Part shown: piece after piece, positions 7,269-64,000 of the stretch
How positions within the stretch are numbered: position 1 is the first letter of the stretch
Layout: each line of letters starts with the position of its first letter
NCBI GenBank assembly: GCA_965261345.1
Contig: OZ253449.1
Location: 2,221,826 to 2,285,825 of the forward strand
Length of the DNA: 64,000 bases
Source: Chloroflexota bacterium
Lineage (GTDB): Bacteria > Chloroflexota > UBA11872 > VXNJ01
Direction of reading: 5' to 3'
Position numbers and translations under genes: made by a program
The notes under the pieces: model-generated
Seen by the model: only the letters and a program-made list of their open reading frames with translations
What the model was told of the DNA's origin: nothing
Databases searched by the model: none

Positions 7269-9704
7269 GTGATCCGAACGAGTCCGATTTACCACGCCGG
7301 GCGGCCCGCAGCGGGCCGATTGCTGCTGTTTGCCCTAGCGCTCTTTTCAGCGCTGGCGCTGGCGGGCGGGGCCGCCGCGGTCGCGGTGCGGGCGCTGGGT
7401 GAAGAAAACGAGGGGATTTGCAATTACTCGGCGCCGATGCGCAATGCCCTGCTTGCGCACGAGGAAAAGGAATTCTTCCTGTGTGATTCGTCTCCGTTTA
7501 CCGATGATGATCAGGACTTTATCTGGGCCGGCGATCTGGACCTGGCAAGCCATGTGGGCTCGTACTTTACCCCCGGCCAGGGCGAGCTGGACGGCTATGC
7601 TGCAGGGTCACGCGTGGATTTGATCAGGCCCGGCTTTGCGGTAGACGACATAAATGCCGACGCGGCGCTGGAGTCGTACCGGAACAACGAGGATTACCGT
7701 GAGTTCGGCATCGATTCCCAAGGGTCGGAGGCCGATCGGCAAAACTCCGACGGAGTGCTGGGTCTAACCTTCCTGCTGGACGGTTCACCGCCGGCCCGCA
7801 GCGGATTGACCAGCGACAGGTTCTTCGGCACCGAGGGCGAACTGGTGTGGATTACCTTCCAGATGGGGGATCCGCCGGATGGATTCTCCAACTGGAAGGA
7901 TTCTGATCTCGATGGCGATGGTTTTTATCTAACGCTTGAGCTGGAAATTGAAACGTCCGGCGATTCGCGCTCGGTTTTCTTCCTGGTCAATTCGGATGAT
8001 CCGCCCGATACCCTCTATGCAATCCCATTCTTAATTCCCGAAAACGATGAGATCGAATCGACCCAACGGGTTGACGTGAACCTGACCCCAGTCGGCGTAT
8101 ACGACACCCGCGTGGACGCCGCCGACCTGGCGCCGACCGACTACATCGACGATGAGGAAGATCGATTCGAAGAGATCGAGCGGGCGCTCGCGCGCGGCGA
8201 TCGGGCAACCCTTGAGGTGAGCGACGACGACCTGCCGGCCAATCGGGTTTGTGACCGCAGCCGGGTGGTAACCGAGGCGCTGGAGGCGGCCACCGGTGAT
8301 GATTGCGATGAAATCAGCGTCGCCGACCTGGCCGGCATCGCCGACCTTGATCTTTCGGAGCTGGGAATCGAGACACTGGCCGCCGATGATTTCGCCGGCC
8401 TCGCAAAGTTGCGGAGATTGGACTTGGCTGGAAATGACATCTCCAGCCTGCCGGCCGGCGTTTTTTCCGGGGTCGGCTCCGAACTGACCGCGCCGACGGT
8501 GGCAGTGATTGACATAAGTGACAATGCCGGTCCCGCCGATCGCGGATTTTCACTGGCCAACGTGTCAAGCCGATTTCGCGCGAGCATGAAAGCGCGCCAG
8601 GCCGTCCGGCTCAATTCGTTCGTTAACATAAGCGACCCCAGCTACGGTTTCGAAGATTCCTCGTATTCGGTTCGCGAGGGGCAAAACCTGGTTGTCGGGC
8701 TCTCGGCCTTCCGCGATAGCACTATCACGTTCCGGGCGTTTGCGCGCGACAGCGGGCGCTATTCCGACACCGATTGCCAAGCCCCCTGTGAGGCCCCCGG
8801 GGCAGCGGTGATCGATGAGGACGGAGAGTATCTGCTCGGGTTTTCGGTACCGATCGACGAAGACGAGAACGACGATACCTTCACCATGCTTTACGGAGCG
8901 GGCATTGATCCCGACTCACTGGACTCGATCGCCGGCCTGGCAAAGCTCACCGTGACCGAAGCGGCGGTTGTGCTACCCAGCGAATTTGATTCGATCGTGG
9001 TATTGGCGGGCACCGAACTGATTACGGCCCCGAACAATCCCGACTTAGACCACAACCTCTCTGATCTATCAGTTACCCGCGGCCGGCTGCGCCTGAACGC
9101 TCCTTTCCGGCAGTTCTACTACGACACCGGCGGCCTTACACGCTGGGGCTACCCGACCTCGGAAGTCCTTATGCTTGAACCTGGCACGCTTTCGCAGTTC
9201 TTCCAGCGCGGTGTGGTCGACTTTCACGATGTCGGCTTCGGCTGGATCCTGGAACGGCGATTGACCTGGGACTACGTAGGTGGTGGAGCCGGCGGAAGCT
9301 TTGACCAGGGGGTCGAACCGGCGCCGGTTCAACCGGGCGGCGGACCGGTGGTCGGATTCGGTCACGCAGTGACCAACCAGACCGCCAGCGGGGGTCGCAC
9401 CGGATTCCTCGACACCTACAACGAACTCGGCGGAGTGGACAGTTTCGGCTATGCCAAGACGGCTGCGCGGGTGGACACCAACCTGCCGGGGACGCTATTC
9501 GAACCCGGTACAACCCCAGGATTTATTCGACAGTACTTCCAGGCGGCAATCTTCCAGCGCTCTGCGGCGGGCACCGTCGAAATTACCCTGCTGGGCGATA
9601 CGCTGCGCAATCAGTTGGTGCCGCAGCACTCCAGCATCCCCGCCTTCAGGCGCGCCAACCGGCTGCTGGAAGGTCAGGTCCTGAATCTGCAGCTGATCAA
9701 TTGA
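7269..9704 (+). CDS. Secreted/cell-surface protein: signal peptide, acidic Asp/Glu-rich region, leucine-rich repeats, two C-terminal LGFP-type repeats
   Basis: N-terminal hydrophobic segment LLLFALALFSALALAGGAAAVA. LRR-like LDLSELGIETLAADDFAGLAKLRRLDLAGNDISSLPAGVF. C-terminus GGLTRWGYPTSEV...GTLSQFFQRGVVDF and ELGGVDSFGYAKT...GFIRQYFQAAIFQ fit the LGFP cell-wall-anchoring repeat pattern. Paralogous to the CDS at 51587-52291. Confidence 0.7.
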   Translation: MIRTSPIYHAGRPAAGRLLLFALALFSALALAGGAAAVAVRALGEENEGICNYSAPMRNALLAHEEKEFFLCDSSPFTDDDQDFIWAGDLDLASHVGSYFTPGQGELDGYAAGSRVDLIRPGFAVDDINADAALESYRNNEDYREFGIDSQGSEADRQNSDGVLGLTFLLDGSPPARSGLTSDRFFGTEGELVWITFQMGDPPDGFSNWKDSDLDGDGFYLTLELEIETSGDSRSVFFLVNSDDPPDTLYAIPFLIPENDEIESTQRVDVNLTPVGVYDTRVDAADLAPTDYIDDEEDRFEEIERALARGDRATLEVSDDDLPANRVCDRSRVVTEALEAATGDDCDEISVADLAGIADLDLSELGIETLAADDFAGLAKLRRLDLAGNDISSLPAGVFSGVGSELTAPTVAVIDISDNAGPADRGFSLANVSSRFRASMKARQAVRLNSFVNISDPSYGFEDSSYSVREGQNLVVGLSAFRDSTITFRAFARDSGRYSDTDCQAPCEAPGAAVIDEDGEYLLGFSVPIDEDENDDTFTMLYGAGIDPDSLDSIAGLAKLTVTEAAVVLPSEFDSIVVLAGTELITAPNNPDLDHNLSDLSVTRGRLRLNAPFRQFYYDTGGLTRWGYPTSEVLMLEPGTLSQFFQRGVVDFHDVGFGWILERRLTWDYVGGGAGGSFDQGVEPAPVQPGGGPVVGFGHAVTNQTASGGRTGFLDTYNELGGVDSFGYAKTAARVDTNLPGTLFEPGTTPGFIRQYFQAAIFQRSAAGTVEITLLGDTLRNQLVPQHSSIPAFRRANRLLEGQVLNLQLIN

Positions 9705-58908: not shown

Positions 58909-59715
58909 ATGATGGCCAAGATCGCCGCTGAGCTGTTCACCGTCCGTGAACACCTGGGCAATCAGCAGCAACTGCATGAAACGGTTCATCGCCTGGCCGG
59001 GATTGGCTTTGAGTACGTGGAGTTGGCGGCGGTCGCGGCGGTCGACGGCCCAGACGCTGACACCAGTCCGGCAACGCTGCGGCAAATGCTCGACGACCAC
59101 GGGCTTCGGGCCTCAAGCGCCCACCGGCGCTTTGGAAACCTGCGCGACAACACCGCGGAGGAACTTGATTACCTCCAAACCCTGGGCTGTTCGATGGTGG
59201 CGCCACCGGTCATCTTCGATGTTTACGATTACCGCGATTTCGACGGTTACCGGCGCTTTCTCGAAGAAGCACAACCGGTCCGCGAAACAGTGGCCGCCGC
59301 CGGCATCGATTTTGCCTACCACAACCATTCGCACGAGTTTGTGTATTTTGCCGGCACCAACGCCATGGAATACATGATCGAAAAGAGCCAAATGCAGATG
59401 GAGCTGGACACCTACTGGACCGCGATTTCCGGCGCTGACCCGGCGGAGATGATCTCACGCCTGAAAGGTCGAATCCGTTATCTGCACTGCAAGGACGCAC
59501 AGGTCTTTCCGACCGACGATCCGGATTTGTTTGCCATGCCCGGACCCACCTTCGCACCGGTCGGCGAGGGCCTGCTGAACTGGGGCGCAATCCTGGCCGC
59601 GGCGGCTGAGGCCGGAACCGAGTACTACATCATCGAGCAGGATGTTTGTCGGCGCGATCCGTTCGACTGCCTAGCGTCTTCATTCCAGTTCCTTTCGGAG
59701 GAAACCAAAACCTAG
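58909..59715 (+). CDS. Sugar phosphate isomerase/epimerase (xylose-isomerase-like TIM barrel)
   Basis: Family-typical …GFEYVEL…, …HNHSHEF…, …LHCKDA… segments. 268 aa. Confidence 0.8.
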   Translation: MMAKIAAELFTVREHLGNQQQLHETVHRLAGIGFEYVELAAVAAVDGPDADTSPATLRQMLDDHGLRASSAHRRFGNLRDNTAEELDYLQTLGCSMVAPPVIFDVYDYRDFDGYRRFLEEAQPVRETVAAAGIDFAYHNHSHEFVYFAGTNAMEYMIEKSQMQMELDTYWTAISGADPAEMISRLKGRIRYLHCKDAQVFPTDDPDLFAMPGPTFAPVGEGLLNWGAILAAAAEAGTEYYIIEQDVCRRDPFDCLASSFQFLSEETKT

Positions 59716-60008: not shown

Positions 60009-60665
60009 CTATCCGGTTCCAAACTGACGGTCGCCGGCATCGCCAAGACCGGGAAGGATGAAGCCGCGTTCGTCTAACCGATCGTCCAGGGCGGCAATGA
60101 ATATCGGCACTTCGGGGTGTTCGCCGTGCAGGCGAGCCACTCCTTCGGGGGCCGCGATCAAGCCCACAAAGGTGATGCTGGAGATTCCCTGGCGCTTCAG
60201 CAGCCGGCATGCGGCCGAGGCCGATCCGCCGGTCGCCAGCATTGGGTCCAGCAGCAGGCACATCTGCACGGCGACAGGACCCGCCGCCGCGGCGTAGTAC
60301 TCGATCGGGTCGAGCGTTTCCTCATCGCGGCGCAGGCCCAGGTGATAGACGACGGAATCGGGTAGGACCTCGGAAAGCGCCTCCGACATGCCCAGCCCGG
60401 CGCGCATCACCGGCGCCAGTCCGATCCGTCCCGGCAGGCGCCGTCCGGGGGCGATGGCCGCGGGGGCCGCAACCTCCACTGGCGTGGTGGCCAGGTCGGC
60501 GGTCGCTTCGTAGAAGATGAGGCGGGTCAGATCCCTAACCAGGGTGCGGAATCGGTGCGGCGGCGTGGCGGCGGCGCGAAGTTCGCACAGCTTGTGCTGC
60601 ACAACCGGGTGGGCCGACACCCAGAGTTTGGAGTTGGATTTAGTTGGATCCATCGGTTCAGACAA
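60009..60665 (-). CDS. upp: Uracil phosphoribosyltransferase
   Basis: PRPP-binding LLLDPMLATGGSA motif and C-terminal FILPGLGDAGDRQFGT. Confidence 0.85.
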   Translation of the reverse strand: MSEPMDPTKSNSKLWVSAHPVVQHKLCELRAAATPPHRFRTLVRDLTRLIFYEATADLATTPVEVAAPAAIAPGRRLPGRIGLAPVMRAGLGMSEALSEVLPDSVVYHLGLRRDEETLDPIEYYAAAAGPVAVQMCLLLDPMLATGGSASAACRLLKRQGISSITFVGLIAAPEGVARLHGEHPEVPIFIAALDDRLDERGFILPGLGDAGDRQFGTG

Positions 60666-61560
60666 TTTTGGGCTAAGGCTCGGCGGGCCGCCTAAATATC
60701 CATTCGTGCGTTGGCCGGCTGGCGCGGGTGTTGGTTCCTGTAGACCCTTCTAGGCATCCGATTGGTGCTGCGACCGCCAGCGCGTTTGAGCCGCTGAAAG
60801 CTCCGCGGTTATCGCCCGGACCTGCGCCGGCGATCTGGCCACCCCACCAGCGGGTCATGCGGCATAGCCAGCTAGAGGAGATCACGGTTGCCGATATCGG
60901 CCGCTCCCTTGGCCATGCCATGCATGTTGATAGATGCCTGGCTGGACGGCCCGCAGGACAGCGGCATTTCTCAAAGTTGCCCCATGCATGACCGGTTGCG
61001 GTTGTCGTGACCAGGATCTTCCACCACGCAGGCGGTGGAGAGGTTGAGGATGGCGCCGCCGCTGCGGTCATTGAAGTACCCGGCGGAGATGTCGCCCGGT
61101 CCCGATTGCTTCGGCGATGCAGGGGCGGTGTCCATCGACCTGATCGCCGGGATCGATCGGGCCGTTAGCCTGCGCTTGCCCAGGTTCCGTGCGCGCCGCT
61201 CGCGCTTGGTTTATGCGGCCAATTTCAGCAATTTGCCCACGGCCATTGGTCCAACTTCCATCACTCGAGCATGCGCATCGCGGGGCGGCAGATCGTATTT
61301 GGGCAGCAACTATTTCGCGGCGGCGATATCCGCGAGTTCCCAAGTGGGAAAACAGAGGATAGGATGCAAACATGCTCACGTATTTGCCGTTTGCCATATT
61401 TGCCGCATGAATTCCACGTCGGTGACGCCGTCCAAATTATTGGGTTCCGCGTGAATTGGCCGTCTGTCCGATTGAACCCGTTTGCAAAAATTCGCATCCC
61501 AGTGGCTACGAACTGTCGGTGGCTGGTTCTCGATAACTTAAAACTGCCGGGCAGGGCAGC

Positions 61561-62826
61561 TTGACCGCAAGTGGCCAAATCACCATCTACGGCATTCAAT
61601 GGTGCCCAGACTGCCGCCGCTGCCGCCAATTTTTGGGCGAGCATGGCATTGGCTTTCGCTGGGTGGATCTCCTCGAGCAGGCTTCCGCCGAGCAGGAGTT
61701 CGCCCAGCTCGACATTGGTCGCCCGGTGCTGCCTACGGTGCTGCTCGCGAATGGGCGGGCGTTGCTGCGGCCGAGCAATGCCGAATTGGCCGACGCGCTC
61801 GCAATCGATACCGATCGTGAGCGGCGCTATTGGCCCCTGATCATCATCGGAGGGGGTCCAGCCGGGCTCGTCGCGGCGACATTTGCCGCCCGCGATGGTT
61901 TCGACACGCTGGTAATTGAGCGTGAACAGGTGGGAGGCAACGCCAATCTCTCCGGCGAAGTTGAGAACATGCCCGGTTTCCCGACGGCGATAAGCGGATT
62001 TGAGCTAAGTGACCGCTTGCGCGCCCAGGCCCGTAAAGCCAACGTCGAGATGATCCAGGCCGCCAACGTTGTTCGAATCGACAGCCTGGGGCCGTACCAC
62101 ACGGTGGTAACCGAGGACGGTGAAGAATACAGCTGCTTTGCCTTAATCATTGCGACCGGCAGCACATATCGTCGCCTGCAGATCCCCGGTGAGTCCAAAT
62201 TGAATGGTTCCGGTGTCTACTACTGTGCGGCCACCGACGCGTATTTCTATACCGGAGAACACGTGGCCGTAGTTGGCGGCGGCAATTCGGCCGCCGAAGC
62301 GGCGCTGGCACTAGCTAGCTATGCCGGGAAGGTCTCGATGCTCGTGCGCGGTGAAAACCTCACTGCCAACGCCATCATCGCCGAACGGCTATTGGAAATC
62401 GCCAATATTGAAGTTATCTACGGAGTTGATCTGCACGAATTTCGCGGCGACGGCCAACTCGAAGCGGTTCGTGTGCGCGACATGCAGACCGATCAACTGC
62501 GCGATATTGCGGTCCGCGCGGCCTTCGTGTTTATCGGGATGCGACCAAATTCCGAATTCCTGCGCGAGGGTCGGGTTGAACTGGACCGACGGGGCTTTAT
62601 CTGCACCGGCAGCGACGTATCCAGCCGCGGCGACCTGGGTGCGGACCCCGACGAATTGGCCGATTTTGCGACGGCCGTGGCACCTGGGATATTCGAGTCT
62701 TCGGTTCTGGGAATATTTGCCGCAGGCGACATACGAAAAAACAGCTCAAAATTCGTTGCCACCGCCACCGGCGAGGGTGCCGCAGTGGCGATGTTGGCCA
62801 GCCAATACCTGCGCAACATGGCCTAG
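61561..62826 (+). CDS. Glutaredoxin-like domain fused to thioredoxin-reductase-like flavoprotein (atypical: single Cys in place of CxxC)
   Basis: N-terminus ITIYGIQWCPDCRRCRQFL (Grx/NrdH-type CPxC). Then FAD motif IIIGGGPAGL, an NAD(P)-type GGGNSA motif, and FAAGD. The canonical TrxR active site CATCD is replaced by CAATD. Confidence 0.8.
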   Translation: MTASGQITIYGIQWCPDCRRCRQFLGEHGIGFRWVDLLEQASAEQEFAQLDIGRPVLPTVLLANGRALLRPSNAELADALAIDTDRERRYWPLIIIGGGPAGLVAATFAARDGFDTLVIEREQVGGNANLSGEVENMPGFPTAISGFELSDRLRAQARKANVEMIQAANVVRIDSLGPYHTVVTEDGEEYSCFALIIATGSTYRRLQIPGESKLNGSGVYYCAATDAYFYTGEHVAVVGGGNSAAEAALALASYAGKVSMLVRGENLTANAIIAERLLEIANIEVIYGVDLHEFRGDGQLEAVRVRDMQTDQLRDIAVRAAFVFIGMRPNSEFLREGRVELDRRGFICTGSDVSSRGDLGADPDELADFATAVAPGIFESSVLGIFAAGDIRKNSSKFVATATGEGAAVAMLASQYLRNMA

Positions 62827-63155: not shown

Positions 63156-64000
63156 CTACGCGGGGCCGCTGAGAATGGCGTCGGTCATTACCGCCAGGAA
63201 CAACAATGCCAGGTAGGCCAGCGAATACAGGTAGAGCGGCCTTGCCTCCTTGGCATCTTCTGTCCGCTTCAATCTCACCGCCCGATAGATGAACACCGCC
63301 CCAAGTACCAGGGCCGAGACCAGGTACATAAATCCGACCGCGCCGGTTGCAAAGAACATTACGGTCAACGCAACCAGCAAGATCGTATGTAGCAGGATCT
63401 GTAACTTCGTTTGCCCAAGGTCGGTTACGACTGGCAACATCGGCACCCCGGCGCGAGCATAATCCTCTTTGATCAAGAGCGCCAAGGCCCAAAAATGCGG
63501 TGGCGTCCAAAAGAAGATGATTGCGAACAGGTAGGCCGCCGGAAGATCAATCGACCCGGTAATGGCAGCCCACCCGACCATCGGTGGGATGGCGCCGACA
63601 GCTCCGCCGATGACGATGTTGTGGGGCGTCGAACGCTTGAGGCCGAGGGTGTAAATGAATATGTAGATCAAGGTCCCGCTCAATGCAAGCACGGCGCTGA
63701 GTACATTTGCAAGCGAACCCAATAGCGTGAACGCCGCGACGTTGAGCGCGATTCCAAATATCAAAGCGTGCCGCCTTGAAATTCGGCCGCTGGCAACCGG
63801 TCGACGGCTAGTGCGTCGCATCTTTTGGTCGAGATCACCTTCAGCGCCGTGATTTAGGGCATTTGCCCCGCCGGCGGCCAGATACCCACGGACGAGAACG
63901 AGTCCTGCAATCGCCGGGTCGGGCCAACCCTTCGCGGCAAGGACCATCCCGCCGACAGCGGTTAGGAGGAGGAGGAATATGATCCGAGGCTTTGTCAGCG
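63156..64000 (-). CDS. ctaB: Protoheme IX farnesyltransferase (heme O synthase), 5' end runs off the window
   Basis: UbiA-family motifs (…ANALNHGAEGDLD…RRP…). Translation upstream of the track's Met continues in frame to the window edge (LTKPRIIFLLLLTAVGGMVLAAKGW), matching the CtaB N-terminus. Confidence 0.85.
   Translation of the reverse strand, partial: LTKPRIIFLLLLTAVGGMVLAAKGWPDPAIAGLVLVRGYLAAGGANALNHGAEGDLDQKMRRTSRRPVASGRISRRHALIFGIALNVAAFTLLGSLANVLSAVLALSGTLIYIFIYTLGLKRSTPHNIVIGGAVGAIPPMVGWAAITGSIDLPAAYLFAIIFFWTPPHFWALALLIKEDYARAGVPMLPVVTDLGQTKLQILLHTILLVALTVMFFATGAVGFMYLVSALVLGAVFIYRAVRLKRTEDAKEARPLYLYSLAYLALLFLAVMTDAILSGPA

Follow-up and report, generated by a model that had tools for sequence, protein, structure and literature searches.

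Loss of the second redox cysteine in a glutaredoxin-fused thioredoxin reductase-like flavoprotein from Chloroflexota

What becomes of a thioredoxin reductase-type enzyme when one of its two redox cysteines is replaced and a glutaredoxin domain is tethered to it? This question is raised by a gene at positions 61561 to 62826 of a 64,000-nucleotide stretch of DNA (the window) from a Chloroflexota bacterium (GenBank assembly GCA_965261345.1, contig OZ253449.1, positions 2,221,826 to 2,285,825 of the forward strand). The gene product, which we call the query, joins a glutaredoxin (Grx)-like domain to a flavoprotein of the low-molecular-mass (low-Mr) thioredoxin reductase (TrxR) type. Catalysis by low-Mr TrxRs is a textbook example of dependence on one flavin-adjacent cysteine, and it is this very residue that has been exchanged in a natural lineage. 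The loss of the second cysteine is genuine and is inherited by one whole small lineage. Judged from its sequence, the enzyme is probably no longer a classical disulfide reductase. The features of the gene are as follows.

61561..62826, plus strand: complete open reading frame for a Grx-like domain plus a low-Mr TrxR-type flavoprotein; TTG start, 421 aa and stop
61561..61824, plus strand: N-terminal glutaredoxin/mycoredoxin-like fold, aa 1-88, followed by a linker of ~10 aa (Pfam, PDB match and AlphaFold2 model)
61603..61614, plus strand: Grx redox motif C15-P-D-C18, inside WCPDC (aa 14-18; nucleotides 61600-61614, TGG TGC CCA GAC TGC)
61849..61866, plus strand: FAD-binding GxGxxG, G97-G-G-P-A-G102; columns invariant or nearly so in the family alignment
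62224..62238, plus strand: degenerate redox motif C222-A-A-T225-D226 in place of TrxR CATCD (TGT GCG GCC ACC GAC)
62275..62292, plus strand: NAD(P)H-binding GxGxxA, G239-G-G-N-S-A244; columns invariant or nearly so in the family alignment
62344..62364, plus strand: V262-R-G-E-N-L-T268, replacing the 2'-phosphate-binding HRRxxxR; only R263 (=R176) retained
62611..62691, plus strand: insertion relative to canonical TrxR, aa 351-377 (gaps in HMMER and BLASTP alignments)
62716..62730, plus strand: FAAGD motif of the FAD domain, aa 386-390

The reductase active site and its known relatives

We aligned the query to E. coli TrxR by BLASTP, using a reference sequence identical to 1CL0_A. The two proteins share 34% identity and their C-termini align end to end. 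C222 of the query corresponds to E. coli C135, T225 to C138 and D226 to D139, and the CA[ITA]CD of solved low-Mr TrxRs aligns column for column with CAATD. D139 is the acid-base catalyst of TrxR, and work by Williams and Ludwig reportedly identified C138 as the cysteine adjacent to flavin C4a. E. coli TrxR reportedly remains partly active when mutated to a single cysteine. With threonine at the C138 position, the second redox cysteine is absent and no intradomain redox disulfide is possible, as a preliminary description of the gene, made from the DNA letters and their translations, had maintained. The retained C222, equivalent to C135, occupies the flavin-distal position. In cross-linked complexes of TrxR or FFTR with thioredoxin (Trx), it is C138 that is joined to Trx C32 in a mixed disulfide (PMC8469568). 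In the flavin-oxidizing (FO) state, the CxxC loop packs against the flavin and is buried there (PMC8564101).

An alignment of the 12 members of the clade that shares the loss (described below) revealed no compensating conserved cysteine elsewhere. C192 is conserved in the clade, but the same position is also a cysteine in E. coli TrxR and lies away from the active site. C348 is a cysteine in only 7 of the 12 members.

The nucleotide site also departs from canonical TrxR. V262-R263-G264-E265 align with E. coli H175-R176-R177-D178 and T268 aligns with R181, leaving one of the three arginines that bind the NADPH 2'-phosphate. The LVRGE segment spans aa 261-265, and its R263 is invariant in the family of fusion proteins to which the query belongs. 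The preliminary description was correct that the HRRD motif is missing, being replaced by VRGENLT. This absence is not tied to the cysteine loss, since LVRG[DE] is found family-wide and only one of the three arginines is left throughout the family. In NCBIfam, the query scores 269.4 bits against TRX_reduct (TIGR01292) and CxxC-intact fusion members score 313-318 bits, all under the cutoff of 343.45. Scores against the AhpF models are 209.7 for TIGR03140 (cutoff 502.9) and 225.7 for TIGR03143 (cutoff 687.65). None of the fusion proteins attains the TrxR or AhpF cutoffs.

The earlier assignments of an N-terminal Grx-like domain with a CPDC motif and a C-terminal module of the low-Mr TrxR type both held up. 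The N-terminal part matches Pfam Glutaredoxin at aa 7-61 with 36.0 bits, passing the PF00462 gathering threshold of 22.9, and its closest solved structure is mycoredoxin-1 (2LQO, E 1.2e-6). Against the NCBIfam mycoredoxin model TIGR02200 it scores 46.6 bits, under the cutoff of 89.5; the CxxC-intact relative P0121 scores 83 bits. C15 and C18 are invariant in 117 of 117 aligned family members, including all 12 that lost the reductase cysteine. P16 is likewise invariant, and P58 of the 'LPT' loop (cis-Pro) is nearly so. The C-terminal module matches Pyr_redox_2 at aa 93-349 with 150.6 bits, and among solved structures low-Mr TrxRs are closest to it (E 2e-52 to 1e-45). The protein ends in ...YLRNMA, without a C-terminal cysteine pair. 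TTG at 61561 is the sole start that keeps the Grx fold, because there is an in-frame TAA upstream at 61534-36 and no other start codon ahead of the first Grx beta-strand. The same 421-aa product was called independently in two assemblies, as the identical P0278 and as P0273, which differs by 2 aa.

We modeled the query with AlphaFold2 from 117 family sequences. The model has a predicted local distance difference test score (pLDDT) of 84.7 and a predicted template modeling score (pTM) of 0.82; confidence is low for residues 123-131 and for the insertion at 351-377 (pLDDT 53-68). Its Grx part shows a beta-alpha-beta-alpha-beta-beta-alpha fold. The top full-length Foldseek match is AhpF (E 2e-36, 432 aligned columns) with a root-mean-square deviation of 13-19 A, so the placement of the domains differs from that in AhpF. 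The reductase module fits conformers in the flavin-reducing (FR) state best, with template modeling (TM) scores of 0.89 to 5MH4 and 0.85 to 1F6M, compared with 0.67 to the FO structure 5MJK.

We compared the query to characterized enzymes that share its parts. It has the same two-Rossmann fold as low-Mr TrxRs (E. coli 1TDE/1F6M, M. mazei 4ZN0 and D. radiodurans 2Q7V), with GxGxxG, GxGxxA, the D139 equivalent and G(F)AAGD in common. Unlike these enzymes, it carries an N-terminal Grx domain, a threonine at the C138 position, one HRRxxxR arginine and an insertion of ~21-27 aa before FAAGD. AhpF (1HYU, 4O5Q) likewise tethers an N-terminal thiol-redox fold to a TrxR-like module. However, both AhpF modules have an intact CxxC and the N-terminal one consists of two tandem Trx folds, whereas the query has one Grx fold of ~80 aa and a broken reductase CxxC. 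NTRC combines a low-Mr TrxR and a C-terminal Trx in one polypeptide, and both of its CxxC motifs are intact and required. The query differs in having an N-terminal Grx in place of a C-terminal Trx carrier, and in its degenerate reductase center. The Foldseek matches include 9VV4, which we take to be a fusion of the NTRC/TrxR-Trx type. Thioredoxin glutathione reductases of animals and parasites have the same domain order, N-terminal Grx and then TrxR. They are high-Mr enzymes of the glutathione reductase type with a C-terminal Sec/Cys center, whereas the query is low-Mr and bacterial and has no such pair.

Several TrxR folds lack the CxxC motif altogether. TrxR-like ferredoxin/flavodoxin-NADP+ reductases (FNRs) and YpdA/Bdr proteins are still working flavoenzymes, and they act on non-disulfide or small-thiol substrates (PMC8564101). 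The FAD-binding GxGxxG and NAD(P)H-binding GxGxxA/G are motifs of low-Mr TrxRs (PMC8564101). In an alignment against TrxR and FNR types of the kind proposed earlier for this gene, CAATD fell on the TrxR CxxC, and the query was far nearer TrxRs (E 1e-52) than TrxR-like FNRs (E ~1e-17) or Bdr (E ~1e-11). Unlike YumC-type FNRs and YpdA/Bdr, it keeps one cysteine and the D139 equivalent and carries a Grx domain. YumC-type FNRs are further marked by an extended hinge and by a C-terminal extension whose aromatic residue stacks on the flavin (PMC8564101); the C-terminus of the query aligns with that of TrxR to the end. Its CxxC loss arose independently of FNR and Bdr, within a family that bears the motif.

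A cysteine-lost clade in a family of fusion proteins

We searched 5.8 billion protein clusters for homologs of the query. The preliminary description had called the fusion architecture unusual; on the contrary, it is that of a large set of 410-430-aa proteins, the named ones from Anaerolineae, Caldilineaceae and other Chloroflexota. More than 100 fusion members share 47-53% identity with the query over 98-100% of its length. A scan of a genome collection also placed the architecture in Dehalococcoidia, SAR202, Ktedonobacteria, Actinomycetota and a few other metagenome-assembled genomes; among the matches listed, none was closer to the query than 46% identity. We counted motifs in the 120 best homologs. 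WCPDC is present in 116, and the reductase motif is CATCD in 90 and CASCD or CAACD in 13, for a total of 103 with an intact CxxC. Nearly all of the 120 have LVRG[DE] and no HRR. The query shares the WCPDC Grx fold, LVRG[DE] and the insertion before FAAGD with this family and departs from it in the reductase CxxC. Both the fusion and the lack of an NADPH motif are thus the family norm; only the cysteine loss is special, and it is rare.

CxxC-intact fusions presumably work like AhpF or NTRC, because members normally carry both CxxC centers. By analogy, electrons most plausibly pass from the reductant to FAD, the reductase CxxC, the tethered Grx CxxC and then the substrate, and AhpF is the closest functional analogue. 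Genes for the fusions are annotated as 'FAD-dependent oxidoreductase' or, wrongly for the clade described here, as 'thioredoxin reductase (NADPH)'. Some gene calls hide the Grx domain. P0010 is called from an internal start, with the Grx-coding sequence MASPKVTIYGIRWCPDC... just upstream in frame (L002 7932-8000). P0001 (at locus L090) begins after a +1 frameshift at codon 92. Because of such calls, the fusion is undercounted in tallies of domain architecture.

The cysteine loss is present in the genomes themselves. The CAATD codons are found in six assemblies from the same or closely related species: the window and loci L085, L087/L088, L089, L090 and L091. Converting the ACC codon of T225 to TGC requires two substitutions and no indel. 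The preliminary description had allowed that a sequencing error (CATC to CAAT) might account for the motif, or that orthologs in related genomes might all carry an intact CxxC. Neither was the case. Six assemblies agree, the ratio of nonsynonymous to synonymous change (omega) is 0.10 across a synonymous divergence (dS) of 0.32, and the second cysteine is missing from the nearest orthologs (64-69% identity) as well. We therefore rejected a sequencing or assembly error, to which we assign a negligible probability.

Beyond the 90% cluster of the query itself, its nearest relatives are 11 full-length clusters at 64-69% identity, and all 11 lack the second cysteine. Their reductase motif is CAASD in seven, CAAGD in three and SAASN in one (P0005), which has lost both reductase cysteines and the aspartate at D226. 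Two shorter gene calls, P0010 and P0022, also have CAASD; P0010 is a truncated call, because its Grx domain is encoded just upstream. We built a neighbor-joining tree of the reductase module with 100 bootstraps. The query and the 11 clusters are monophyletic (bootstrap 100), with the query sister to the other 11 (bootstrap 100). This cysteine-lost clade is sister to a clade of CASCD/CAACD fusions (bootstrap 98), and all of them are nested inside the CATCD fusions. Where the fusion protein is 99%, ~90% and 69% identical to that of the window, ValS on the same contigs is 100%, 94% and 73% identical. The ValS identities track those of the fusion protein and therefore indicate vertical inheritance. 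The best ValS relative with a name belongs to a 'Chloroflexota bacterium' and is 76% identical. The clade is a vertically inherited trait of one uncultured Chloroflexota lineage.

The gene has been under purifying selection since the cysteine was lost. We calculated omega by the Nei-Gojobori method. It is 0.12-0.15 among four members from the sister genus, with similar values for the Grx and reductase parts, and 0.13-0.15 for P0005 (SAASN) against its relatives. Between the window and L089/L091, with CAATD on either side, omega is 0.10-0.11 at a dS of ~0.32. Low omega in comparisons where both sides lack the cysteine indicates that the protein was maintained long after the loss. In a three-point comparison, the branch of the cysteine-lost clade exceeds the sister branch in length by a factor of 1.57. 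The excess is 1.98x for the C-terminal FAD part, 1.66x for the Grx domain and 1.53x for the NAD(P) domain, a pattern that fits a functional shift.

Other residues changed along with the cysteine. The CxxC helix went from F-C-A-T-C-D-G-P-F-Y-K to Y-C-A-A-[STG]-D-A-[FY]-[AF]-Y-[AT], with the substitutions T224A, G227A and P228F/Y. Three further positions, numbered as in the query and named for the residue conserved in the family, co-vary with the CxxC:

62611-62613, plus strand: H351
62623-62625, plus strand: H355
62752-62754, plus strand: Q398

H351 and H355, which are conserved in the family-specific insertion (aa 351-377), are absent from the clade, and the insertion has gained a 7-aa insert specific to it. 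At position 398 (E. coli Q294), all 9 canonical TrxRs and 40 of the 43 intact fusions have glutamine, and the clade has tyrosine or phenylalanine. H351 and Q398 are kept wherever the reductase CxxC is intact, and each of the three lineages that lost it has other residues there; H355 behaves similarly, if less strictly. From this pattern, H351, H355 and Q398 may be part of the family's disulfide-relay machinery.

The reductase CxxC was lost at least two further times in the superfamily. One case is P0021 (SAASD), which lies with its neighbor P0019 (C-SCD) inside the sister clade (bootstrap 100). Q398 is replaced in both proteins. Because P0021 is nested within the sister clade, the two represent an independent degeneration. 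The other case emerged from an exhaustive HMMER search of 1.84 billion representatives, of which we examined the best 150 at 50% identity. Most of these are proteins of ~550 aa whose Grx-like plus TrxR-like core aligns over residues ~4-420 of the query. No cysteine is present in either motif in 75 + 15 of the best 150 representatives, in which the motifs typically read 'RWSxRS' and 'Y-G-A-A-T-E-A'. These Cys-less proteins (P0127, P0132, P0134, P0136, P0163, P0168 and ~85 other representatives) have an added Response_reg (REC) and/or cNMP_binding domain, N- or C-terminal, and reach ~550-720 aa.

The Cys-less ~550-aa family forms one clade (bootstrap 100) at 35-41% identity to the query. Like the query, it has a Grx-like plus TrxR-like core with a remodeled CxxC loop (Y-x-A-A-[ST]-[DE]-A), and it differs in its extra sensor domain and in the absence of the Grx cysteines. 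The loops have converged, reading Y-C-A-A-[STG]-D-A in the cysteine-lost clade and Y-[GA]-A-[AT]-x-E-A in the Cys-less family. Both groups also share A227, A247 (E247A) and the replacement of H351 and Q398. The Response_reg and cNMP_binding domains carried by the Cys-less relatives indicate that the TrxR/Grx scaffold has a selectable function independent of thiols. From their domain composition, these proteins look like signal-regulated flavoenzymes descended from Grx-TrxR fusions. We found no description of the REC/cNMP-fused Cys-less relatives in the literature searched.

Genomic surroundings and disrupted copies

The fusion gene stands alone between upp and the isomerase-type gene on one side and ctaB/ctaA on the other, and the layout in L085 is the same. 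The neighbors in the window are:

58909-59715, plus strand: TIM barrel of the AP_endonuc_2/sugar-phosphate isomerase type
60009-60665, minus strand: upp, uracil phosphoribosyltransferase, identified through its L085 ortholog
63156-63947 and beyond, minus strand: ctaB, UbiA-family heme O synthase (ctaA is next in L085)

Elsewhere the window encodes valS, mfd, topA and an error-prone DnaE2-type polymerase. With these genes and housekeeping neighbors, the locus is a chromosomal region and not a mobile element. The window holds no paralog of the query, by a phmmer search against all its open reading frames of at least 90 aa. Rfam models detected no regulatory RNA or riboswitch, either between 58000 and 64000 with a limit of E<=1 or across the full window with gathering thresholds, and we found no sigma-70-like promoter for the fusion gene.

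Upstream of the fusion gene, the ~890 bp that separate it from upp (60666-61560) contain no convincing open reading frame. Its minus-strand translation weakly resembles the C-terminal domain of GH4 (E 0.028), and the segment may be a gene remnant. The corresponding gap holds a 134-aa open reading frame with no Pfam match in L085 and L087, and an insertion sequence (IS)-type HTH_Tnp_1 frame in L090. The surroundings are different in the sister genus (L001-L004, gene at 8001). There, ChrA is divergently adjacent or within ~2.3 kb (~300-2300 bp upstream), a Sulf_transp/TusA/rhodanese cluster lies nearby, and a 2-hydroxyacid dehydrogenase gene follows the fusion gene. This neighborhood is absent at the window locus and, for the sulfur genes, at L085.

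Some strains carry broken copies of the gene. In L087 (2458-3723) and the identical L088, point substitutions introduce the stop codons Q49* and Y179*, with every neighboring gene undamaged. Here the gene seems to have been truly inactivated at the level of the strain, and it is therefore dispensable in at least one strain. Single-base 'A' insertions cause +1 frameshifts in L089 (codons 230 and 392), L090 (codon 92) and L091 (codon 171). The frameshifts in L090 and L091 are probably long-read assembly errors, because neighboring genes are shortened too. The copies in the window and L085 are intact.

Possible fates of the electron relay

As the best explanation, which we hold tentatively and rate somewhat short of an even chance, we propose that the relay from FAD to the disulfide is broken, that the flavin module is now a thiol-independent oxidoreductase and that the Grx dithiol serves in another role. 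Uncoupling of the flavin module from dithiol exchange is favored because the key thiol, in one case both thiols, and the co-varying residues have been lost. The sites for the flavin and the nucleotide are nonetheless fully conserved, as is the Grx CPDC. In the ancestor of the clade, Ser, Thr or Gly replaced the cysteine equivalent to C138, and with it went the thiol that touches flavin C4a and attacks the disulfide of the partner. Remodeling of the CxxC helix and loss of H351 and Q398 accompanied the replacement, followed by evolution ~1.6x faster than in the sister clade under clear purifying selection. The relay would then be interrupted at the FAD-to-disulfide step. The flavin module may reduce something else without thiols, like other CxxC-less TrxR-fold enzymes, and the Grx CPDC may be reduced by a separate system as a thiol-transferase or act as a redox-sensing regulatory module. 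The clade looks like an early step along a route that this superfamily followed on at least two other occasions, with the REC/cNMP family as an endpoint without redox cysteines. Several points weigh against this explanation. The Grx CPDC is invariant in the clade and C222 and D226 are kept in 11 of its 12 members, either of which could mean that thiol chemistry persists. The phylogeny comes from a simple distance tree. An all-against-all BLAST of the neighbors in 31 loci found no conserved operon partners beyond four syntenic genomes, and the literature searched yielded no paper describing a bacterial family of Grx/low-Mr TrxR fusions.

If thiol chemistry does persist, the relay may have been rewired. 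C222 and Grx C15 could pair in a disulfide, between domains or between subunits, for reduction by FADH2; alternatively, the flavin could reduce C15-C18 directly. We regard this as possible, though on the unlikely side. Besides the retained residues, purifying selection on both domains (omega of 0.12-0.22 for Grx within the clade) is consistent with it, as is the FR-like conformation of the modeled reductase, in which the CxxC loop faces outward to a Trx-type partner. However, the cysteine that was kept is equivalent to C135, whereas C138 makes the mixed disulfide with Trx C32 (PMC8469568). P0005 remains constrained without either cysteine or D226, and the clade has lost H351 and Q398, both of which accompany an intact CxxC. 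With the loop buried at the flavin in the FO state (PMC8564101), there would be little space for a Grx domain. The preliminary description had suggested that the fused Grx might supply the dithiol in cis or that a single cysteine might suffice; against both stands a related superfamily that lost all four cysteines. In a monothiol mechanism of the latter kind, resembling that of single-Cys flavoprotein reductases, a small thiol or persulfide would be joined to C222 alone in a mixed disulfide, and the Grx domain would act as a thiol-transferase. The CxxS (seven clusters) or CxxT (query) motifs of the clade would suit such chemistry, as would the resemblance of the Grx domain to mycoredoxin, the partner of a small thiol, and the sulfur gene cluster near the gene in four syntenic relatives. 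But those sulfur genes are confined to four closely related syntenic genomes and absent from the window and L085, three clade members have CxxG, one has no reductase-motif cysteine at all, and C222 is flavin-distal. We consider a monothiol mechanism improbable.

The cysteine loss might also have inactivated the enzyme and left a dispensable gene to decay. The disrupted copies in near-identical strains and the accelerated rate of the clade point in this direction. On the other hand, omega stays at 0.10-0.15 over dS values from 0.3 to >1 after the loss in both domains, conservation is complete for the Grx CPDC and for the FAD and NAD(P) motifs, two of the frameshifted copies are probably artifacts of assembly, and intact copies exist in the window and L085. 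We give decay little credence as an explanation. As a reading of the whole clade we rejected a pseudogene on the basis of omega, though at least one strain copy looks truly inactivated. The most far-reaching reading, to which we give a fairly low probability, is that the clade is a naturally rewired enzyme with a split C222-Grx C15 disulfide or with direct reduction of the Grx disulfide by the flavin. In a second version, the clade would capture an intermediate between a disulfide reductase and the Cys-less sensor-coupled family.

TrxR-fold enzymes without a CxxC were already known. What is new here is the lineage-specific loss of a catalytic cysteine in a Grx-fused TrxR-fold protein. A split disulfide between C222 and Grx C15, or direct flavin reduction of the tethered Grx, is not a known route in low-Mr TrxR-fold enzymes. 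If the Grx thiols have taken over, the clade would provide a new exit route for electrons from a TrxR-fold flavin. If they have not, it would provide a stepwise record of a disulfide reductase turning into a flavoenzyme that works without thiols. A very large and apparently unstudied family of flavoproteins coupled to REC and cNMP domains seems to have arisen by the same conversion, and the parent family of Grx-TrxR fusions, abundant in Chloroflexota, is likewise unstudied. The TrxR annotation should not be transferred to these genes.

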